Shown here: positions 6,548-14,900 of the stretch, one piece after another
How positions within the stretch are numbered: position 1 is the first letter of the stretch
Layout of the letters: the number at the start of each line of letters is the position of its first letter
Source: a virus
Lineage: Duplodnaviria; Heunggongvirae; Uroviricota; Caudoviricetes
Virus record (IMG/VR): IMGVR_UViG_2579779049_000014
Location: 1-22,295 of that record
Length of the DNA: 22,295 bases
Reading direction: 5' to 3' (one strand)
Program-made: the position numbers and the translations under genes
The notes under the pieces: generated by a model
The model's database searches: none
Told to the model about the DNA's origin: nothing
What the model saw: only the letters and a program-made list of their open reading frames with translations

Positions 6548-7131
6548 GCAACGTAATTTTTACTTATAACGAAGAAGCAGCACTGACCGCAGGGCAAGGT
6601 GGTTTTATTAACGAAACTGGCGCTCACATAATTACCATTACTGAAGCAGAACTCAAGCAATCAGAAAAAGGAGCCAAATTTATTGAGTTTTCTGGAGAAT
6701 CCGACGACGGACGTAAAATCCAGTATCTTAGCGTCTGTGTTCAGAAAAATGACGGCACGGAAAACAAATTTGGCGCAAATGTCGTTCACGCCATGATGGG
6801 GTGTGCCGGGATTGGACAATTAACGCAACATATGGTTTCCGCCAGTAAATTTGTTGCACCTGAATTTCATGGAAAGAAAATCGGGTTAGTGCTCCAGAAA
6901 GTATTAACCACAAACAAAAAGACTGGCGCAGACAGCTACCAGATGGAAATACGCATCCCGTTTATTGCACAAACAGGTCAAACCCTTAAAGAAAAGGCAG
7001 AAGGCAAGCAACCAGAAACTATCGCCAACATGGTTGCCAGCCTCAAAGATAAAGACAATCGCTCTAAAAACGTAAGCCATAATCATGCAGATGATTATGG
7101 TTACAGCCAGAACGATTACCCTCCTTTCTGA
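6544..7131 (+). CDS. Putative ssDNA-binding partner protein (SSB-like C-terminal tail)
   Basis: Start overlaps the upstream stop (ATGA); the acidic/aromatic C-terminus …HADDYGYSQNDYPPF resembles SSB tails that end in PF; sits next to the Sak4-like ATPase. Confidence 0.4.
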   Translation: MSNVIFTYNEEAALTAGQGGFINETGAHIITITEAELKQSEKGAKFIEFSGESDDGRKIQYLSVCVQKNDGTENKFGANVVHAMMGCAGIGQLTQHMVSASKFVAPEFHGKKIGLVLQKVLTTNKKTGADSYQMEIRIPFIAQTGQTLKEKAEGKQPETIANMVASLKDKDNRSKNVSHNHADDYGYSQNDYPPF

Positions 7132-7154
7132 TTACTGAAAATAAGGCTCCCATT

Positions 7155-7451
7155 ATGCCAGCGCCTCTGTATGGTGCGGATGACCCGCGCAACTGCTCCG
7201 GTAGCTCCAAGGCGGAGGTGCTGGAAAATATCAAAAACAATTTCGACGCGTTTCTTGCTCTGACACCAGAAACAAAAGCAGAACGGATGTACCGACGCGA
7301 TATACAACTCGCGCTAAAACAGGAGAAGGACCGAACAAACGAAACAGCAATGAGACCGTTGCGAAAAGCGACAATAGACAAATTCCCTGAATATATCGAC
7401 CCGCGCCTGCGTAATTACCGCTCACGCTATGGCGCTATCAGTAATGACTGA
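7155..7451 (+). CDS. Hypothetical protein
   Basis: 98-aa ORF on the operon strand; weak Shine-Dalgarno. Confidence 0.45.
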
Positions 7452-7461
7452 GGAATTTACC

Positions 7462-7629
7462 ATGAGAGGACTTGCATACAATCCCGGCATTCTTCCGGCA
7501 GAAATGATTATTCGCCAACGCGTAAAGCCAATGCCCTCGAGAGAGGAATTGCTTAAGAGAAAGAGTTTCGGTTCTGTTAATGACAACAAATATCTGAATG
7601 CGATGTTGCGCAAAGGAGGCAACCAGTGA
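7462..7629 (+). CDS. Small protein sharing the C-terminal RKGGNQ junction module
   Basis: ATG at 7462 with GAGGAA upstream; ends …MLRKGGNQ, with its stop overlapping the GTG start of the next gene. Confidence 0.4.
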
Positions 7630-8255
7630 GCAAAATTGACTATCAGGCACTGCGTGAGGCGGCAGTAGCAATTGAAACAGTAGCAACGCCTCAAAAATTG
7701 CTGGCATTTCGTATGAAAGTCACACCTCAGGTTGTGCTGGCGCTACTGGATGAACGAGATGCATTAAACGAACGCATAGCCGAACTGGAGGCTAATTTAG
7801 CGGAGCTGGCCGAAGACCAACAGAAAGCGATTGAGTCAATTAAGCAGGCTGATGCGGCTGTTAAGTTGGCACACGAGAAGTTTTCGGTGCTGGCGGCAGA
7901 GAATGCGGAGCTTAAACAGTCGGAGAAGGAATTTAATAACTTCTGTCGTCAGGAGTACTACGGTTGGGAGGACAACTTCACGGAAACCCCAGCCACCGAC
8001 GCTTTCCTGGCTGAAATTCGTGCGGCGGCTCGCAACGAGGGTATTAACTATACCGCAAGCCGTCTTGCTGCTGCTTTCAATCACGGATTTATCAATAAGT
8101 CTTTGCGTGAAGTTTTCGACGTTACACGCATGATTTTGTCAGCGAAAGAAGAGTTGGCTAATGAAGCGCATCCGATTGATGGCCTGTCTGGTGAATATGC
8201 GGAGAAATCCCTTGAAGAATGGGCGGAACAGATTCGCAAAGGAGGAAACCAGTGA
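7626..8255 (+). CDS. Ea22-like early protein (coiled-coil), paralog 1
   Basis: GTG start at 7626 preceded by AAAGGAGG; [13 protein letters not shown]…, coiled-coil central part, ends …IRKGGNQ; lies in the lambda ea22 position. Confidence 0.55.
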
Positions 8256-8845
8256 GCAAGATTGACTATCAGGTACTGCGTGAAAAGGCAGAAAAAGCAA
8301 CGTGTGGTGAGTGGTCTCTCGAATATGGAGAGAGCCGATTTGATGGTGATGATGCACTAATTCATCGCGAGGCTGCTGGATATATTCCCATTTGCAGAAT
8401 TGAAGGAGCGCATCCTGAAAGCGGTTTCGATGAAGATTTCCAAATGGAACAGCAGGCCAATGCTGAATTCATCGCCGCAGCCAATCCGGCTACCGTCTTG
8501 GCGCTGCTGGATGAGCTGGAAAGAAACCAGCAATACATCAAACGCCGCGACCAGGAGAACGAGGATATTGCGCTAACGGTAGGGAAACTGCGTGTTGAGC
8601 TTGAGGAAGCAAAATCAAAACTCAACGAGCAACGCGAGTATTACGAGGGAGTAATCGCGGATGGAAGTAAGCGCATAGCAGAACTGTCTGCTAGCCACAG
8701 CAAATTGCGCGACACAATGGCTGGCATCCACAACACAATCCGAATGGATGGCGGCTATACGCCACTGGCAGCAATCCTTAACGCTGCTAAACGCGCATAT
8801 GAAGAATCAGCAAGCGCCGCTGGCATCAAGGAGGAGTCTGAGTGA
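8252..8845 (+). CDS. Ea22-like early protein, paralog 2
   Basis: GTG start at 8252 after AAAGGAGG; [13 protein letters not shown]…; the N-terminus and the upstream DNA are near-repeats of paralog 1. Confidence 0.55.
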   Translation: MSKIDYQVLREKAEKATCGEWSLEYGESRFDGDDALIHREAAGYIPICRIEGAHPESGFDEDFQMEQQANAEFIAAANPATVLALLDELERNQQYIKRRDQENEDIALTVGKLRVELEEAKSKLNEQREYYEGVIADGSKRIAELSASHSKLRDTMAGIHNTIRMDGGYTPLAAILNAAKRAYEESASAAGIKEESE

Positions 8846-9336
8846 TGGTCATTTCACCTATAACGCTGAAAGCGGCGCAGGAATTTATCGCACAGCACCA
8901 CCGACACAATAAACCACCAGTGGGGCATAAATTCAGCATTGGTCTGAGAAATAATGCCGGAGAATTGATAGGTGTGGCGACAGCTGGTCGACCTGTTGCA
9001 CGACATTTGGACGATGGATTAACGCTTGAAGTAAATCGCACATGTACCACAGGAGAACGCAACGCTAACAGCGCGCTTTATGGTGCTGTCTGGCGGGCAG
9101 CAAAAGCTATGGGTTATCAACGTTGTATTACGTACACCCAGGCAGATGAATCAGGAGCATCTCTTCGCGCAGCTGGTTTTGTTCGTGTGAAAGAGCTTCC
9201 TCCAAGAAAAAGCTGGGCGGAATCAAGCGTCGCCCTGCGGAGTAAACGCGATCCGGTCGGAAACGGTGGTATTCCTCGTGTGCTCTGGGAAATCAGGAGA
9301 ATGAGTACCGCTGGCATTCGCATCAAAGGAGAGTGA
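8845..9336 (+). CDS. Hypothetical protein, possible GNAT-like acyltransferase fold
   Basis: ATG at 8845 with AAGGAGGAG 7 nt upstream (GTG at 8842 is the alternative). Segments …GVATAGRPVARHLDDG… and …YTQADESGASLRAAGFVRV… resemble GNAT motifs; weak. Confidence 0.4.
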   Translation: MVISPITLKAAQEFIAQHHRHNKPPVGHKFSIGLRNNAGELIGVATAGRPVARHLDDGLTLEVNRTCTTGERNANSALYGAVWRAAKAMGYQRCITYTQADESGASLRAAGFVRVKELPPRKSWAESSVALRSKRDPVGNGGIPRVLWEIRRMSTAGIRIKGE

Positions 9337-9337
9337 G

Positions 9338-9529
9338 ATGAACGGACAAATCTCAATTGTTCGACCGGGAGCATGTGACGATCGCGAGATACGAATGATT
9401 ATTCGTCTGGCGATGGGGAAAACAATAACTGCTCTCATTACTCCAGAAAATCTCGCATTAGCATTAACCGGAAAGTCAGACCTGCCAGTAGAGCTAAAGC
9501 TGCGAAATGTTGAGATTAAGGTGAAATAG
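9338..9529 (+). CDS. Hypothetical small protein
   Basis: 63 aa; AAGGAG upstream; tightly coupled to its neighbours. Confidence 0.45.
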   Translation: MNGQISIVRPGACDDREIRMIIRLAMGKTITALITPENLALALTGKSDLPVELKLRNVEIKVK

Positions 9530-9531
9530 CT

Positions 9532-10143
9532 ATGACCACTATTACCGACAAAGAGCTAATTAAAGAAATTAAAGAACATATCAGCAGTCTGGGGGTGCGG
9601 GACAATATTGAGCGCCGTGCTTATGAAATTGCGTTGACTGCATTGACCGCTGAACCATTCGCCACTATCGACACCGCGGGAATTGAGCTCGTTAAATATG
9701 GTTGTAACACGTTTATTAGTCCCGACAATTCGATGGATCCGGGAAATGTACCGCTATATATCGGCCTGCCACGAATTGAGCCAGCAAGCCAGACTGCCAA
9801 GCTGTCATTCCAGGAATGGTTGTCAGAACAAAAAGAAAAAATAGACGTTGATTGCGGATGTGTGAGCACTGAAACGCTTATGCACTGGATGCGTGTGGCG
9901 TATGAGGCTGGCAACTCTCCGGTAATTCCGGATGGTTGGATAAGCTGTAGTGAGCGAATGCCAGAAATTAGACAAACAGTTATTGGATGGAATGAATATG
10001 CAGTTAGACAATGCGTATATACAAGGAATGAATATGCCAAGACACAGAAAGGCAGAGAGCCAAGGTTTGAAACCTTAACTGGTATATGGCATGGAGTAAC
10101 CCACTGGATGCCGCTACCAGAACCGCCGCAGGAGGTGAACTGA
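9532..10143 (+). CDS. DUF551 domain protein
   Basis: C-terminal …WHGVTHWMPLPEPPQ matches the DUF551 signature common in enterobacterial prophage early regions. Confidence 0.6.
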   Translation: MTTITDKELIKEIKEHISSLGVRDNIERRAYEIALTALTAEPFATIDTAGIELVKYGCNTFISPDNSMDPGNVPLYIGLPRIEPASQTAKLSFQEWLSEQKEKIDVDCGCVSTETLMHWMRVAYEAGNSPVIPDGWISCSERMPEIRQTVIGWNEYAVRQCVYTRNEYAKTQKGREPRFETLTGIWHGVTHWMPLPEPPQEVN

Positions 10144-10538
10144 TGGAAAATGAAGGCGATAATATCATCACACTGGTGCAGCCAAAGCGCGATGAAGAGA
10201 AGCTGCTGAACATTACAGTAACTGGCAGAAAAAACTACACACAACAGAGCTGTAAGCATCGGGCCATTGAGGTTCATGAACAGGATCACGTTATCCTGTG
10301 CTTGCAGTGCGGATGTGTTGTGGACCCTTTTCAGTATGTTCTGCGGTGTGCGAACGATGGTGAGGCTGTGGTGAGAGAGATTAGACAGCTTCATAACAGA
10401 CACGATCAGCTCCGAGAATCTGTTGCCAGCCTCGAGCGTGAAGAAAAGAACACCAAAGCACGGTTGCGGGCAGCAAGAACTGCAATACTGTATGCGGAAA
10501 ATGACCTTAAAAATATTGAGCAGAAGGTGAATCAATGA
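10143..10538 (+). CDS. Hypothetical protein with a Cys/His cluster and C-terminal coiled coil
   Basis: ATG at 10143 overlaps the upstream stop (TGATG); GGAGGTG upstream; C-x4-H … H-x4-CLQCGC may bind zinc. Confidence 0.5.
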   Translation: MENEGDNIITLVQPKRDEEKLLNITVTGRKNYTQQSCKHRAIEVHEQDHVILCLQCGCVVDPFQYVLRCANDGEAVVREIRQLHNRHDQLRESVASLEREEKNTKARLRAARTAILYAENDLKNIEQKVNQ

Positions 10539-10618
10539 CCTGGCCTGAAGCATTCGCAAATGTAGGAACAGTAATGGCGGTGGTGCTGGTTGTGTATTCG
10601 ATTTGTCGCTGGAGATAA
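10535..10618 (+). CDS. Possible 27-aa hydrophobic peptide
   Basis: ATG at 10535 with AAGGTGA upstream; MTWPEAFANVGTVMAVVLVVYSICRWR, one predicted transmembrane helix. Confidence 0.25.
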   Translation: MTWPEAFANVGTVMAVVLVVYSICRWR

Positions 10619-10744
10619 AAACGGTTTGCGGGAAAAGGAGAGTTAAGTAGAATTGCTGCGGGTGCTTGAGGCTATCTGCCTCGGGCATGAACACCAACGG
10701 CAGATAGAGAAAAGCCCCAGTTAACATTACGCGTCCGGCAAGAC

Positions 10745-10815
10745 GCTTAACATTAATCTGAGGCTCAATCCATGCTGAACACATGTAGGTTAGCCTCTTA
10801 CGTGCCGAAAGGCAA
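10745..10815 (-). ncRNA. sok: Predicted Sok-type antisense RNA (boundaries approximate)
   Basis: Inferred from hok/mok family architecture, where the antisense RNA is complementary to the mok translation-initiation region; promoter and terminator were not resolved. Confidence 0.3.
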
Positions 10816-10984
10816 GGAGAAGCAGGCTATGAAGCAGCAAAAGGCGATGTTAATCGCCCTGATCGTCATCTGTTTAACCGTCATAGTGACGGCACTGGTA
10901 ACGAGGAAAGACCTCTGCGAGGTGCGAATCCGAACCGGTCAGACGGAGGTCGCTGTCTTCGTAGACTACGAATCTGAGAAGTAA
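10772..10984 (+). CDS. mok: mok-type coupling reading frame, in-frame N-terminal extension of hok
   Basis: The 70-aa track ORF beginning MLNTCRLASYVPKGKEKQA continues in frame into the Hok sequence. Confidence 0.45.
   Translation: MLNTCRLASYVPKGKEKQAMKQQKAMLIALIVICLTVIVTALVTRKDLCEVRIRTGQTEVAVFVDYESEK
10829..10984 (+). CDS. hok: Hok/Gef family type I toxin (small membrane toxin)
   Basis: MKQQKAMLIALIVICLTVIVTALVTRKDLCEVRIRTGQTEVAVFVDYESEK fits the Hok/Gef signature (hydrophobic helix, TRKxLCE, EVA.F) and is closest to HokC/HokD; AAGGAG upstream. Confidence 0.85.
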   Translation: MKQQKAMLIALIVICLTVIVTALVTRKDLCEVRIRTGQTEVAVFVDYESEK

Positions 10985-11103
10985 GAGACCAGGCGGGGGA
11001 GTAATCTCCCGCCACCTCTGATGTGTCAGGCATCCTCAACGCACCCGCGCTTTACCATACTGAAAATGCTGTTTGAATGTTCATCTCTGAAAGAGGACTA
11101 TGA

Positions 11104-11998: not shown

Positions 11999-14900
11999 TT
12001 AATCCACTCCCACTTTTTTGTTGTACTCGCGGTTAAACCGATCCACGGCAATTTTCATATCCCGCTCTACCGATTTCACCATCGCCGACTGTTGCGCCAG
12101 ACTGAGAGTACTGTCGGCGTAAATGGCATCACGCTGTTTACGCAAATCCTTCAGTCTCTTCCGGGTATCCTGCATAAGCCCGTTCATCGACAATTTTCCG
12201 TTGTTCTCGTCAATGAACGCCGTTCTTTCTGCACCGGTCAGACTCTTCAGCTCTGCGTGATACTGCGCAATCTCTGTCATCCGGTCGTACATCTTCTGCT
12301 GGTCTGCATACGGCATCACCTCACCTGAAATTTTCCCCAGGAAGGGCACCTGCTGCTCCGGTATATCAATACCATTCAGCGATTTCACCGCCGCATCCGT
12401 GGTTTTGGAAATGAAGCGCCCTGTCCCTCCGGAGATATAGTCCACCCAGTATTTCAGCGATTCCGGTGTGATATCCACCGCGCCGGGACGGTACTGGCTG
12501 CCACCAGAGAACGCATTCAGCCAGGATGCAAACGCCTTGTACGCTTCTGGCGTTGAACGTCTTCCCAGCTGGCTGTCAGGTTTTGGTGTACCAAACGGCA
12601 TGTTCTCCTGGTAAATCTGCGCCCCCATGAAGTTTTCATTCATGGCAAGGTTCGCAAACGGACGCAGAATGGTCGGCGCTGCATTTTTCAGCAATGCCCC
12701 GGACAGTGTTTCCGACGTCTCACTGCCCACAGGACTGAATGCCCCAAGCACACCACCAACAACATTACCGGCAGCACGTGAAGCGGTCAGGTCGCCCGCT
12801 GCCACCCCTTCGGCTGTGTGACCAAGCAGGAAGAAAACGTTGTACCCGTAAGGCAGAGGAATACTCCAGTACTCTCCGGCCTTGCCCCCGAACACCGATT
12901 TCATAATGACGAGGTTACGCTCTTTCACATGAGACGGCACCTTGTCATACCAGTTAACCCCGTCATCATCCTCCCCCGCAACACTGCGGTTAAGCGAGCC
13001 AAGCAGATAACCCGCTCCCACAGCTGCAAGCGCGATTTTCTGCGGTACATTGAGATTCTTCCAGCGAAGGCGCTCCAGTAACGGCCCGTCGCCATTAAGA
13101 TGTCCGAGCGTTCTCACCAGGTTTGCGGTCCCCTGAATGCTGGCGTTGGCGAACATGTACAGCGAGTTCATCAGCGCTCCCTGCTCACCACGACGGTTAA
13201 AGTTCACCGTCATGTTTTTGGCAAGAGACGCCGCCTGCTGGCGTGACAAACCGGCATCACGGGCGTGTTTATAGGCAGAAAGACGCAGAGCGTTTTCAAC
13301 CGCCCCGTTGGCATCCTCGACAAGGTTAAGGAACGAATTCCATGCACCGATACTCTGGCCTTTCCATCCTCCCTTCGCCAGCGATACAAGGCGATCCATT
13401 TCCTTCTGCTGGCCTTCAAGGTCACCCATGTTAAACCAGCCGGTTTTACCTCCGTCCTCAACAAACTCTTTCCACACCTTCTGCCACTGTGCACCTTTTC
13501 CCGTGAGGGTTTTACCACGCAGACTGGCGTATACGGCTGACATGGCAGAACGGCTGTCTTTCACCACAGCCAGGGCGGATAAGTTATCCAGCCCTTTCAG
13601 TTTACCGTCGCTCCTTCCCTGCTCCGCCTTCAGGTTCATCACCGCCGTCTGCACGTCACGGATGAAGTTACTGACCAGGAATTCCGGGTTATACGACGTG
13701 TTCACCGTTGCCAGGAAGCGGTTAACTTTCCCCAGCGTACGAACAAAGGCATTGCTGGTTTCCGGTCCCATATTCTTCATCGCACGCATCAGGCGCGGAT
13801 CATGGAGTTTGATGTAGTACGTTTTGCCGTTCTTTTTGGTGGTGAAGTACCGGTCTGCCATCATTGCCATCGGTACAGGGCGTTCGACAACTTCGCGAAT
13901 GGTTTCACCAGTTTCCTGGTCCTTGCGCTCTGCAATCGTCCGCATGGTATCCGGTCTGTCATCGGTGAATACCTGCCAGTAATCCTTGTCGGGATTATCC
14001 TGCACCAGTTTCAGGAAGGCGTTACCCACTTCGTTTTTGCGATGGCGGATCAGCGATTCGCTCAGGTCCTGTATCGCCTGAGTGGACGGAGACTGTGCAC
14101 GGGATGCACGCCCCATGGCCTGCCTGCTTTCACGTCCGCCGATGGTGAAGCCCTTACCTGTACGGGGAAGTGACACCACACCGTCAACATCCTGACCTTT
14201 CAGGGGAACGTAGTAACGGTAAGCTTTCTGCCAGGCATCCACAACACCGCTCTCTTCCAGTCCGGCTTCACGGATAAGCTCACGGCGACGGGCCAGCATA
14301 TCGTCAACAATCCCTGCCAGACGGTCATACTGTGCCTGTTTGCCGCTGTTACGCACACGCTGCATGATTTCCGCCGCTTCCGCGTTGGTCATCCCCGAAC
14401 CGCCGTCCGGCATTTTCGGGTTGATTTTCGCGATATGCGCGTTACGTTCCGGCGCGTGACGGGCGTAGAGGTACTCATCCAGATCGGCCTGCGCAATTTT
14501 GTAGTCCGCCAGTAATTTAGCCAGTGGCTGAACGTAGCGCTCCTTCATCACGTTCAGGTCGTTTTCCGCCTTCCCGTGGAAGAGTTCTTCCGCCATATAA
14601 GCGTTGTTACTGTCGTCCACTTTGCCGCCAGTTTTACGGATATTCTCCTGAACAGCTTTCAGCACCTGGAATTTATCCTGCATCTGGCGCACAAAACGCG
14701 ATGCAATTGTCTCTTCCGGTGTCAGACTGCTGGTACGGGAGTAATACGGCCCCTTGCGAATATCTTCAGGATAGAGTATTTTATCCGCAGAGCCGCGATA
14801 AGAATGTTCCCCTTTGGGCAATTGGAGCCCTCTGTGCAGAAGGTTATCGCGGCTTAATTTTTCTCTCCGGTACAACGTTAACCCGGTCATTTCCATACTC

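Follow-up and report, generated by a model that had tools for sequence, protein, structure and literature searches.

A conserved gene-boundary sequence, probably a linker for cassette exchange, in the early-left operon of an Stx-type phage

Introduction

That exchangeable modules of phage genomes are connected by conserved linkers was proposed early on by Susskind & Botstein (1978) and Botstein (1980), and Clark and co-workers (Clark, Inwood, Cloutier & Dhillon, 2001) suggested that short conserved boundary sequences in phage HK620 are foci of homologous recombination (both as cited in PMC2839356 and PMC3029335). Here we describe such a sequence at two consecutive gene boundaries in the early-left operon of IMG/VR virus record IMGVR_UViG_2579779049_000014 (Caudoviricetes), of which positions 1 to 22,295 are referred to below as the window. 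The sequence, hereafter the junction, is roughly 50-75 nucleotides long and joins the C-terminal RKGGNQ codons of one gene to the N-terminal SKIDYQ codons of the Ead/Ea22-like gene that follows. It shares with the boundary or linker sequences of lambdoid phages the placement of a short conserved sequence at a gene boundary of a mosaic genome, and HK620 itself displays a syntenic early-left operon with this very junction between hkaH and hkaG. As far as the passages citing the study of Clark et al. reveal, the RKGGNQ/SKIDYQ junction may already be among the boundaries reported there; a text search of the literature for the KGGNQ motif returned nothing relevant. A preliminary description of the window, made from its sequence, had proposed that the junction is a reusable linker for module exchange. 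That proposal is supported by the results below, although the junction is a clear example of the long-proposed linker or boundary sequences of phages and not a new type of element: it is ordinary for lambdoid prophages, yet a particularly clean and widespread example. What is added to the boundary-sequence literature is scale (half of the complete Escherichia coli genomes), a table of flank combinations and an exact cassette insertion or deletion (indel).

Two further systems invite comparison. The promoter-early stem-loop (PeSL) cassettes of T4-type phages (PMC2839356) similarly consist of repeated expression signals that flank small non-essential genes and serve as linkers for the insertion, deletion and replacement of cassettes. 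PeSL elements, however, are intergenic units combining a promoter and a terminator, provide each cassette with its own transcription and involve mini-circles, whereas the junction studied here is coding sequence with a Shine-Dalgarno (SD) motif inside a single operon and is devoid of a structure signal. The mosaic Ea22 proteins of lambda and Shiga toxin (Stx) phages (PMC10834534, PMC8614690), as represented in the passages retrieved, resemble the proteins encoded here in their short conserved N-terminus, Ead_Ea22 coiled coil and unrelated C-terminal domains. In those of PMC10834534, mosaicism is treated at the level of protein domains and of single ea22 genes, and a term search of that paper gave no occurrence of 'tandem', 'duplicat', 'paralog' or 'recombination'; the retrieved passages of both papers mention neither the DNA junction, nor the upstream tail, nor tandem Ea22-like genes.

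The junction provides a clean and quantifiable case for the dispute on whether phage mosaics arise by homologous exchange at linkers or by illegitimate recombination followed by selection. With a core of ~50 nt (nucleotides) lying between dozens of gene segments in half of the complete E. coli genomes, the question becomes testable by recoding one short sequence.

A direct repeat at two consecutive gene boundaries

A repeat search yielded a single substantial direct repeat within positions 6500-9800, namely a 57-nt sequence present at 7609-7665 and again at 8235-8291, the two copies being 89% identical and spaced by 626 nt. The consensus put forward in the preliminary description, CGCAAAGGAGGNAACCAGTGAGCAANATTGACTATCAGG, has two exact matches in the 22-kb window and none in 100 dinucleotide-preserving shuffles. 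The repeat is real and far above chance expectation, and the near-identity of the two stretches was thus correctly noted at the outset, save that the first copy starts at 7609 and not at 7606. The features concerned are as follows.

7609-7665, plus strand: junction copy 1 (J1), with the R-K-G-G-N-Q tail codons of the DUF2737 gene and the first 13 codons of Ea22-like gene B; SD AAGGAGG at 7613-7619, GTG start at 7626 overlapping the TGA stop at 7627-7629
8235-8291, plus strand: junction copy 2 (J2), with the R-K-G-G-N-Q tail of B and the first 13 codons of Ea22-like gene C; SD AAGGAGG at 8239-8245, GTG start at 8252 overlapping the TGA stop at 8253-8255
7462-7629, plus strand: DUF2737 gene (55 amino acids), homolog of HK620 hkaI; Pfam PF10930, E = 1.9e-30, over residues 1-51 only
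7626-8255, plus strand: Ea22-like gene B (209 amino acids), whose short N-terminus is of lambda type and whose coiled coil is followed by a variable C-terminal part
8252-8845, plus strand: Ea22-like gene C (197 amino acids), with a long Stx-type N-domain, a coiled coil and a C-terminal domain ending in AAGIKEESE

At both junctions, the SD motif AAGGAGG is written within the K-G-G codons of the upstream gene (AAA-GGA-GG(N)) 6 nt before the GTG, stop and start overlap as GTGA, and the first codons of the downstream Ead/Ea22-like gene encode SKIDYQxLRE. RefSeq uses the same overlapping GTG starts for an E. coli locus of 99.9% identity, in agreement with the coding content first ascribed to the repeat (an RKGGNQ-stop with an embedded SD, then a GTG start followed by SKIDYQ). 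Two related statements of the preliminary description have to be amended. It had a third, upstream open reading frame (ORF) also ending in RKGGNQ, but only the DUF2737 gene and B, the latter terminating in IRKGGNQ-TGA, do so; and the small upstream ORF that it counted among the Ea22 paralogs encodes a DUF2737 protein according to Pfam. The RKGGNQ codons of the DUF2737 gene are provided by J1, and in relatives the tail of this protein varies with the downstream neighbor, reading RKGGNQ, RKGGSQ or RSGKK; the tail is thus a property of the boundary, not of the protein family.

The longest exact run common to J1 and J2 is 13 nt, three mismatches being evenly spaced. This limit may mean that deletion-resistant arrays have survived or have been selected for. 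In the sample retrieved at the protein level (see below), none of the loci contained two recognized Ea22-like starts, leaving no tandem pairs in which avoidance of identity could be compared, and in the sample retrieved by DNA pattern the expectation, ~0.8^16 or 0.03, is too uncertain to be used. A SEINYQ variant usually occupies the second junction of other tandem arrays.

Flanking genes reassort across the junction

To compare junctions from different genomes, IMG/VR was scanned with the junction core, using a retrieval pattern that fixes positions -14 to +16 relative to the GTG. At least 119 loci were found, and they are the source of the flank table, for which 150 nt on each side of the junction were clustered into flank types at >=80% identity. 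Among the matches listed, 125 junctions from viral contigs fell into 24 left and 23 right flank types, which occurred in 71 combinations and formed 84 four-gamete quartets. Upstream partners ending at the junction in these matches included DUF2737, a 79-amino acid protein, hkaH-like proteins without Pfam match and several Ead_Ea22 proteins whose C-terminal parts are unrelated; the downstream partners comprised at least 20 different Ea22-like N-domains.

Computed on one sequence per flank combination, column identity in the matches listed was 0.83-1.0 from -17 to +31, intermediate out to -29 and +48, and no higher than random (0.25-0.35) further out than about -40 and +60. In the same matches, polymorphic sites at or upstream of -17 associated only with the left-flank type and those at or downstream of +33 only with the right-flank type, sites in between showing weak association, which is the pattern that crossovers spread through the core would be expected to produce. 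Between -29 and -15, identity was 0.3-0.9 and the upstream proteins listed, although unrelated, had in common an [FI]A[AED][QE][LI]R tail. The linker core extends from about -16 to +32 relative to the GTG, with weaker conservation from -29 to +48; it comprises the upstream tail [L/I]-R-K-G-G-N-Q, the SD AAGGAGG, the GTGA overlap and the first ~11 codons of the Ead/Ea22-like gene.

The most direct evidence for reuse of the junction came from six loci (e.g. L112 and L105) in which window positions 7461-7656 and 8235-8614 align at 93-97% with contiguous DNA. Both alignments include the same 48 nt of one junction copy, and these loci thus correspond to the window minus exactly the 626-bp cassette that B forms between J1 and J2. 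Alignment ends from all loci piled up at both junctions. A conserved core between differing flanks is the hallmark of boundary or linker sequences, and these comparisons show that the flanking modules reassort across the junction. Both the flank combinations and the presence or absence of B precisely between junction copies support the reuse of the junction as a linker; that the exchanges proceed by homologous recombination, as also claimed in the preliminary description, fits the comparative pattern, from which the mechanism itself is inferred.

B and C are distant relatives rather than recent duplicates

B and C had been described as tandem paralogs, which holds only in a distant sense. Both homologs carry the RefSeq name ead/Ea22-like family protein (in the case of B, for an identical protein), and both match Pfam Ead_Ea22 (PF13935), C over the full profile (136 bits, E = 1.4e-39) and B with 42 bits, the cutoff being 27, in a match limited to profile positions 57-114. 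The three-part architecture of Ea22 proteins was recognizable in the form of an N-terminus MS[KE]I[DN]xQALRE, a central coiled coil with an LLDE motif, judged from sequence and Pfam coiled-coil cross-matches only, and a variable C-terminal domain. M1, S2, I4, Q7, L9, R10, L85 and L86 are invariant in an alignment that also comprises lambda Ea22 and 11 further members of the family. The coiled coil of C is nearly identical to that of lambda Ea22, and C carries an insert of ~63 amino acids typical of Stx variants. A pro-lysogenic activity and the ability to tetramerize, reported for lambda Ea22, are known only from experiments on the Ea22 proteins of lambda and Stx phages (PMC10834534).

Local tandem duplication in the recent past of this prophage lineage, with the junction as its remnant, might account for two adjacent genes that match the same Pfam family and start with the same seven residues. 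BLASTP of B against C effectively refuted this candidate: the two proteins are alike in 11 of 13 N-terminal residues and across a coiled-coil stretch of 28% identity, and their DNA displays no similarity outside the 57-nt repeat. Furthermore, B and C each have far closer relatives (93-97% at the DNA level) located beside different partners in other phages. We thus regard a duplication origin as extremely improbable and B and C as distant paralogs.

Conservation is not confined to the junctions, as illustrated by the following segment of B.

7980-8025, plus strand: conserved island inside B, common to many otherwise different upstream proteins

Locus coverage jumps from 18-19 to 50-52 at this island, which is conserved at the DNA level in 67 sources and whose flanks fall into 23 left and 18 right types, combined in 42 ways. 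This suggests that segments may be shuffled within genes too, and not solely at gene boundaries. Synonymous-site conservation amounted to ~0.83 at the junction and ~0.69 in the island; both are conserved in DNA, and the comparison is suggestive but not decisive.

Distribution of the junction

A 65-nt junction consensus was used as query to determine prevalence. It was found in 2840 of 5426 complete E. coli genomes, at 5283 places in total and at up to 13 places per genome. Plasmids of about 90-130 kb accounted for 751 of the 5283 places, and phage P7 also carries an Ead/Ea22-like gene; the boundary is thus common to integrated prophages and probable phage-plasmids. The junction was further present in 426 phage records, including HK620 (between hkaH and hkaG), Salmonella phage ST104, mEp213 and many Stx phages, and related versions were found in Shimwellia and Salmonella genomes. 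Absence of the repeated junction from related genomes, which would have spoken against its reuse, was therefore not observed in E. coli genomes, phage records or the more than 119 IMG/VR contigs. None of the complete E. coli genomes covered >=80% of window positions 7155-9336, indicating that this combination of segments is rare while each segment is common.

A scan of GTDB for distant relatives returned mostly lambda contamination and about 12 real enterobacterial loci, three of which had recognizable junctions, too few for a cross-genus comparison of codons. As to the contamination, ~33 GTDB species-representative assemblies from unrelated phyla (L124-L151, L155, L156, L160-L164), among them Streptococcus, Streptomyces, Prevotella, Shewanella and Pseudomonas, contained DNA mostly 99-100% identical to lambda, on contigs of about 48.5 kb in some cases; this DNA is almost certainly contaminating lambda control DNA.

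No structural signal at the junction

The bracketing of cassettes by direct boundary repeats, as seen for B between J1 and J2 and for a second gene described below, the existence of arrays with up to 13 junction places in one genome, and the precedent of PeSL-mediated shuffling (PMC2839356) all raise the question of whether some dedicated system, site-specific or cassette-mobilizing and comparable to integron attC sites or to the PeSL mini-circles of T4-type phages, targets the junction so as to excise and insert Ea22-like cassettes. We consider this very unlikely. The repeat search revealed no inverted repeat at the junction, RNA folding gave z = -1.1 relative to shuffles for both copies and Rfam had no match there, results that rule out a structured RNA or attC-like site as an explanation of the repeat. 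Pfam and PHROG searches identified the neighboring genes as Sak4, SSB, Abc2 and DUF2737, with no site-specific recombinase adjacent to the junction, and the junction is mostly coding sequence. A scan of positions 5000-11000 for promoters and terminators found nothing at the junction; it returned one promoter-like site outside the region (5254-5226) and minus-strand terminator-like matches inside ORFs at chance level.

A 20-nt inverted repeat, 90% complementary and centered on a palindromic GAATTC, was noted at 8453-8472 and 8927-8946, between ORF C and the XF1762-family gene; it is probably due to chance.

Linker or functional constraint

The explanation that we favor, with a probability of roughly 0.7, is that the repeat is a conserved gene-boundary linker acting both in the initiation and coupling of translation and as a homology patch for the exchange of cassettes. 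It belongs to the early-left (exo-xis or ea) operon of lambdoid and P22-like phages. Judging from its anatomy, the junction would serve every cassette on the polycistronic pL transcript as its region of translation initiation and coupling. Since many cassette boundaries of many phages and prophages carry almost identical DNA, the junction could double as a portable patch of homology at which co-resident genomes would recombine through host RecA or phage annealases such as the Sak4/SSB pair encoded upstream. Cassettes would be swapped, tandemly inserted or deleted in this manner with reading frames and expression undisturbed, B representing one such cassette lodged between two junction copies upstream of C.

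Published work offers a mechanism capable of using short and slightly diverged homology. Phage annealases perform relaxed recombination in which divergence is tolerated (PMC3945230), and the Sak4 protein of HK620 has annealing activity (PMC5928155); action of Sak4 at the junction is our inference. The minimal efficient pairing segment has been put at 23-27 bp for Red-beta and at 31-34 bp for RecA (PMC3945230). J2 shares exact runs of >=27 nt with 80% of the pattern-retrieved set, among the matches listed, and 35% of between-phage junction pairs do so in the protein-retrieved sample.

Several observations weigh against this explanation and in favor of a different one, according to which the junction is conserved by function alone (as ribosome-binding site, stop/start overlap and Ea22 N-terminus), mosaics arise by illegitimate recombination and selection in line with the Hendrix/Juhala view, and the repeat marks gene boundaries without being a substrate for exchange. 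The right half of the junction falls inside Pfam Ead_Ea22, of which it encodes the N-terminus, and the left half is dominated by the SD, so that functional constraint accounts for part of the conservation; invariance from -14 to +16 is also partly a matter of ascertainment, since the retrieval pattern fixes these positions. In L120 and L121, the left half is joined exactly at the start codon to unrelated, non-Ea22 downstream genes, joints that homology in the right half cannot explain. Retrieval at the protein level showed that Ea22-like starts have other upstream contexts as well: ~45% of 65 such starts were preceded by an RKGGNQ-type tail and 20% fitted the strict DNA pattern, the left half of the junction being the commonest upstream context but not the sole one. 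The 13-nt exact runs between J1 and J2 are below the published pairing minima, and RecA-type exchange within this genome should therefore be inefficient. Conserved sequences are absent at most phage mosaic boundaries (PMC3029335). Finally, an island conserved in all parents, taken by itself, looks the same whether crossovers took place within it or selection sieved illegitimate joints.

Other observations speak against function alone, and we deem it unlikely to be the whole account. Synonymous positions are near-fixed across flanks that otherwise cannot be aligned: at codons 2-10, the protein-level sample, which is biased toward C-like genes, had AGC in 47 of 47 sequences, ATT in 47 of 47, CTG in 46 of 47, CGT in 44 of 47 and GCA in 35 of 37. 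Positions -29 to -15 are partly conserved although the SD does not need them, the at least 119 junctions are all colinear and free of indels or scars, and the exact one-cassette indel leaves behind a single copy of the junction.

A bolder version of the linker explanation, which we find improbable, would see a genuine cassette array in the ea region of lambdoid prophages, where a small set of dual-coded boundaries has been selected as recombination signals and Ea22-like effector domains are shuffled with the help of Sak4, SSB and Abc2. RKGGNQ/SKIDYQ would then mark the starts of cassettes and an AGIRIKGE-stop the end of the array, intragenic islands such as 7980-8025 would add further sites, and spaced point differences, as in the 13-nt maximum between J1 and J2, would keep tandem copies from collapsing. 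If this were true, the ea region would be a diversity-generating locus for host-interaction or anti-defense proteins with high-frequency shuffling.

A second boundary type downstream of C

The AGIRIKGE-stop corresponds to a second boundary sequence, of the same design, found downstream of C, where the following features were identified.

9310-9340, plus strand: second boundary, GCTGGCATTCGCATCAAAGGAGAGTGAgATG, comprising the ..TAGIRIKGE-stop of the XF1762-family gene, an SD and the ATG of the hkaF homolog
8813-8845, plus strand: degenerate copy of the second boundary, GCTGGCATCAAGGAGGAGTCTGAGTGATG, located where C ends and the XF1762-family gene has its GTG start
8842-9336, plus strand: XF1762-family, Mom-like gene (NCBIfam NF045478, E = 8.7e-62; PHROG 1384)

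This boundary, written for its AGIRIKGE-stop and SD as GCTGGCATTCGCATCAAAGGAGAGTGA, is identical to the 3' ends of lambda ea22 and HK620 hkaG. The second boundary was present in 105 of about 200 sources, after 31 C-terminal contexts and before 48 downstream contexts. The C-terminal domain of C recurs in L117 and L173, where it ends in the canonical AAGIRIKGE, and in L104 the XF1762 gene lies between two AGIRIKGE boundaries. The XF1762 gene is thus itself a cassette bracketed by the second boundary type. With B between J1 and J2 and XF1762 between AGIRIKGE copies, boundary-bracketed cassettes recur in this operon. For annotation purposes, the junction fixes the GTG starts of Ea22-like genes, and the C-terminal tails RKGGNQ and AGIRIKGE are to be treated as parts of the boundary, not of the protein families in which they occur.

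Operon context and neighboring genes

At 99.6% identity, the window matches Escherichia phage TL-2011a, which is of the Stx type (Sepvirinae) and comes from an O103:H25 outbreak strain. On the plus strand, the early-left operon of the window runs in the order cIII thermoregulator RNA, kil, Sak4, SSB-like, Abc2, DUF2737, B, C, XF1762-family, hkaF homolog and DUF551, which is syntenic with cIII-kil-hkaM-hkaL-hkaK-hkaJ-hkaI-hkaH-hkaG-hkaF-hkaE of HK620. The genes and elements upstream of the DUF2737 gene are listed below.

5414-5472, plus strand: cIII thermoregulator at the start of the cIII gene (Rfam Lambda_thermo, 88.5 bits)
5867-6547, plus strand: Sak4-type single-strand-annealing recombinase, 99% identical to HK620 hkaL (Sak4; PMC5928155)
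6544-7131, plus strand: cognate SSB-like protein (PHROG 743 SSB)
7155-7451, plus strand: abc2, anti-RecBCD protein 2 (Pfam PF11043, E = 1.5e-35; PHROG 656)

Through the Lambda_thermo match, both the identity of the early-left operon and its direction are confirmed, and the Sak4/SSB recombination module (5867-7131) sits 0.5-1.7 kb upstream of the junction region. In the TL-2011a record JQ011316, ORF C (L172, 13944-14345) is annotated from an internal ATG as a 133-amino acid protein, not from the conserved GTG/SKIDYQ start, and all genes of the ea region but abc2 are labelled hypothetical proteins.

Beyond the ea region, a hok/sok toxin-antitoxin module was found on the plus strand at 10660-10984, consisting of an Rfam sok match (10660-10834, 113.5 bits) and a Hok/Gef-family ORF (10772-10984; Pfam E = 1e-22). 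Further downstream and on the opposite strand, an ORF of 2806 amino acids (11999-20419, minus strand) harbors the LPD38, LPD5, LPD1 and MuF_C domains of a 'large polyvalent protein' of mobile elements, and adjoins a 421-amino acid ORF without Pfam match (20450-21715, minus strand).

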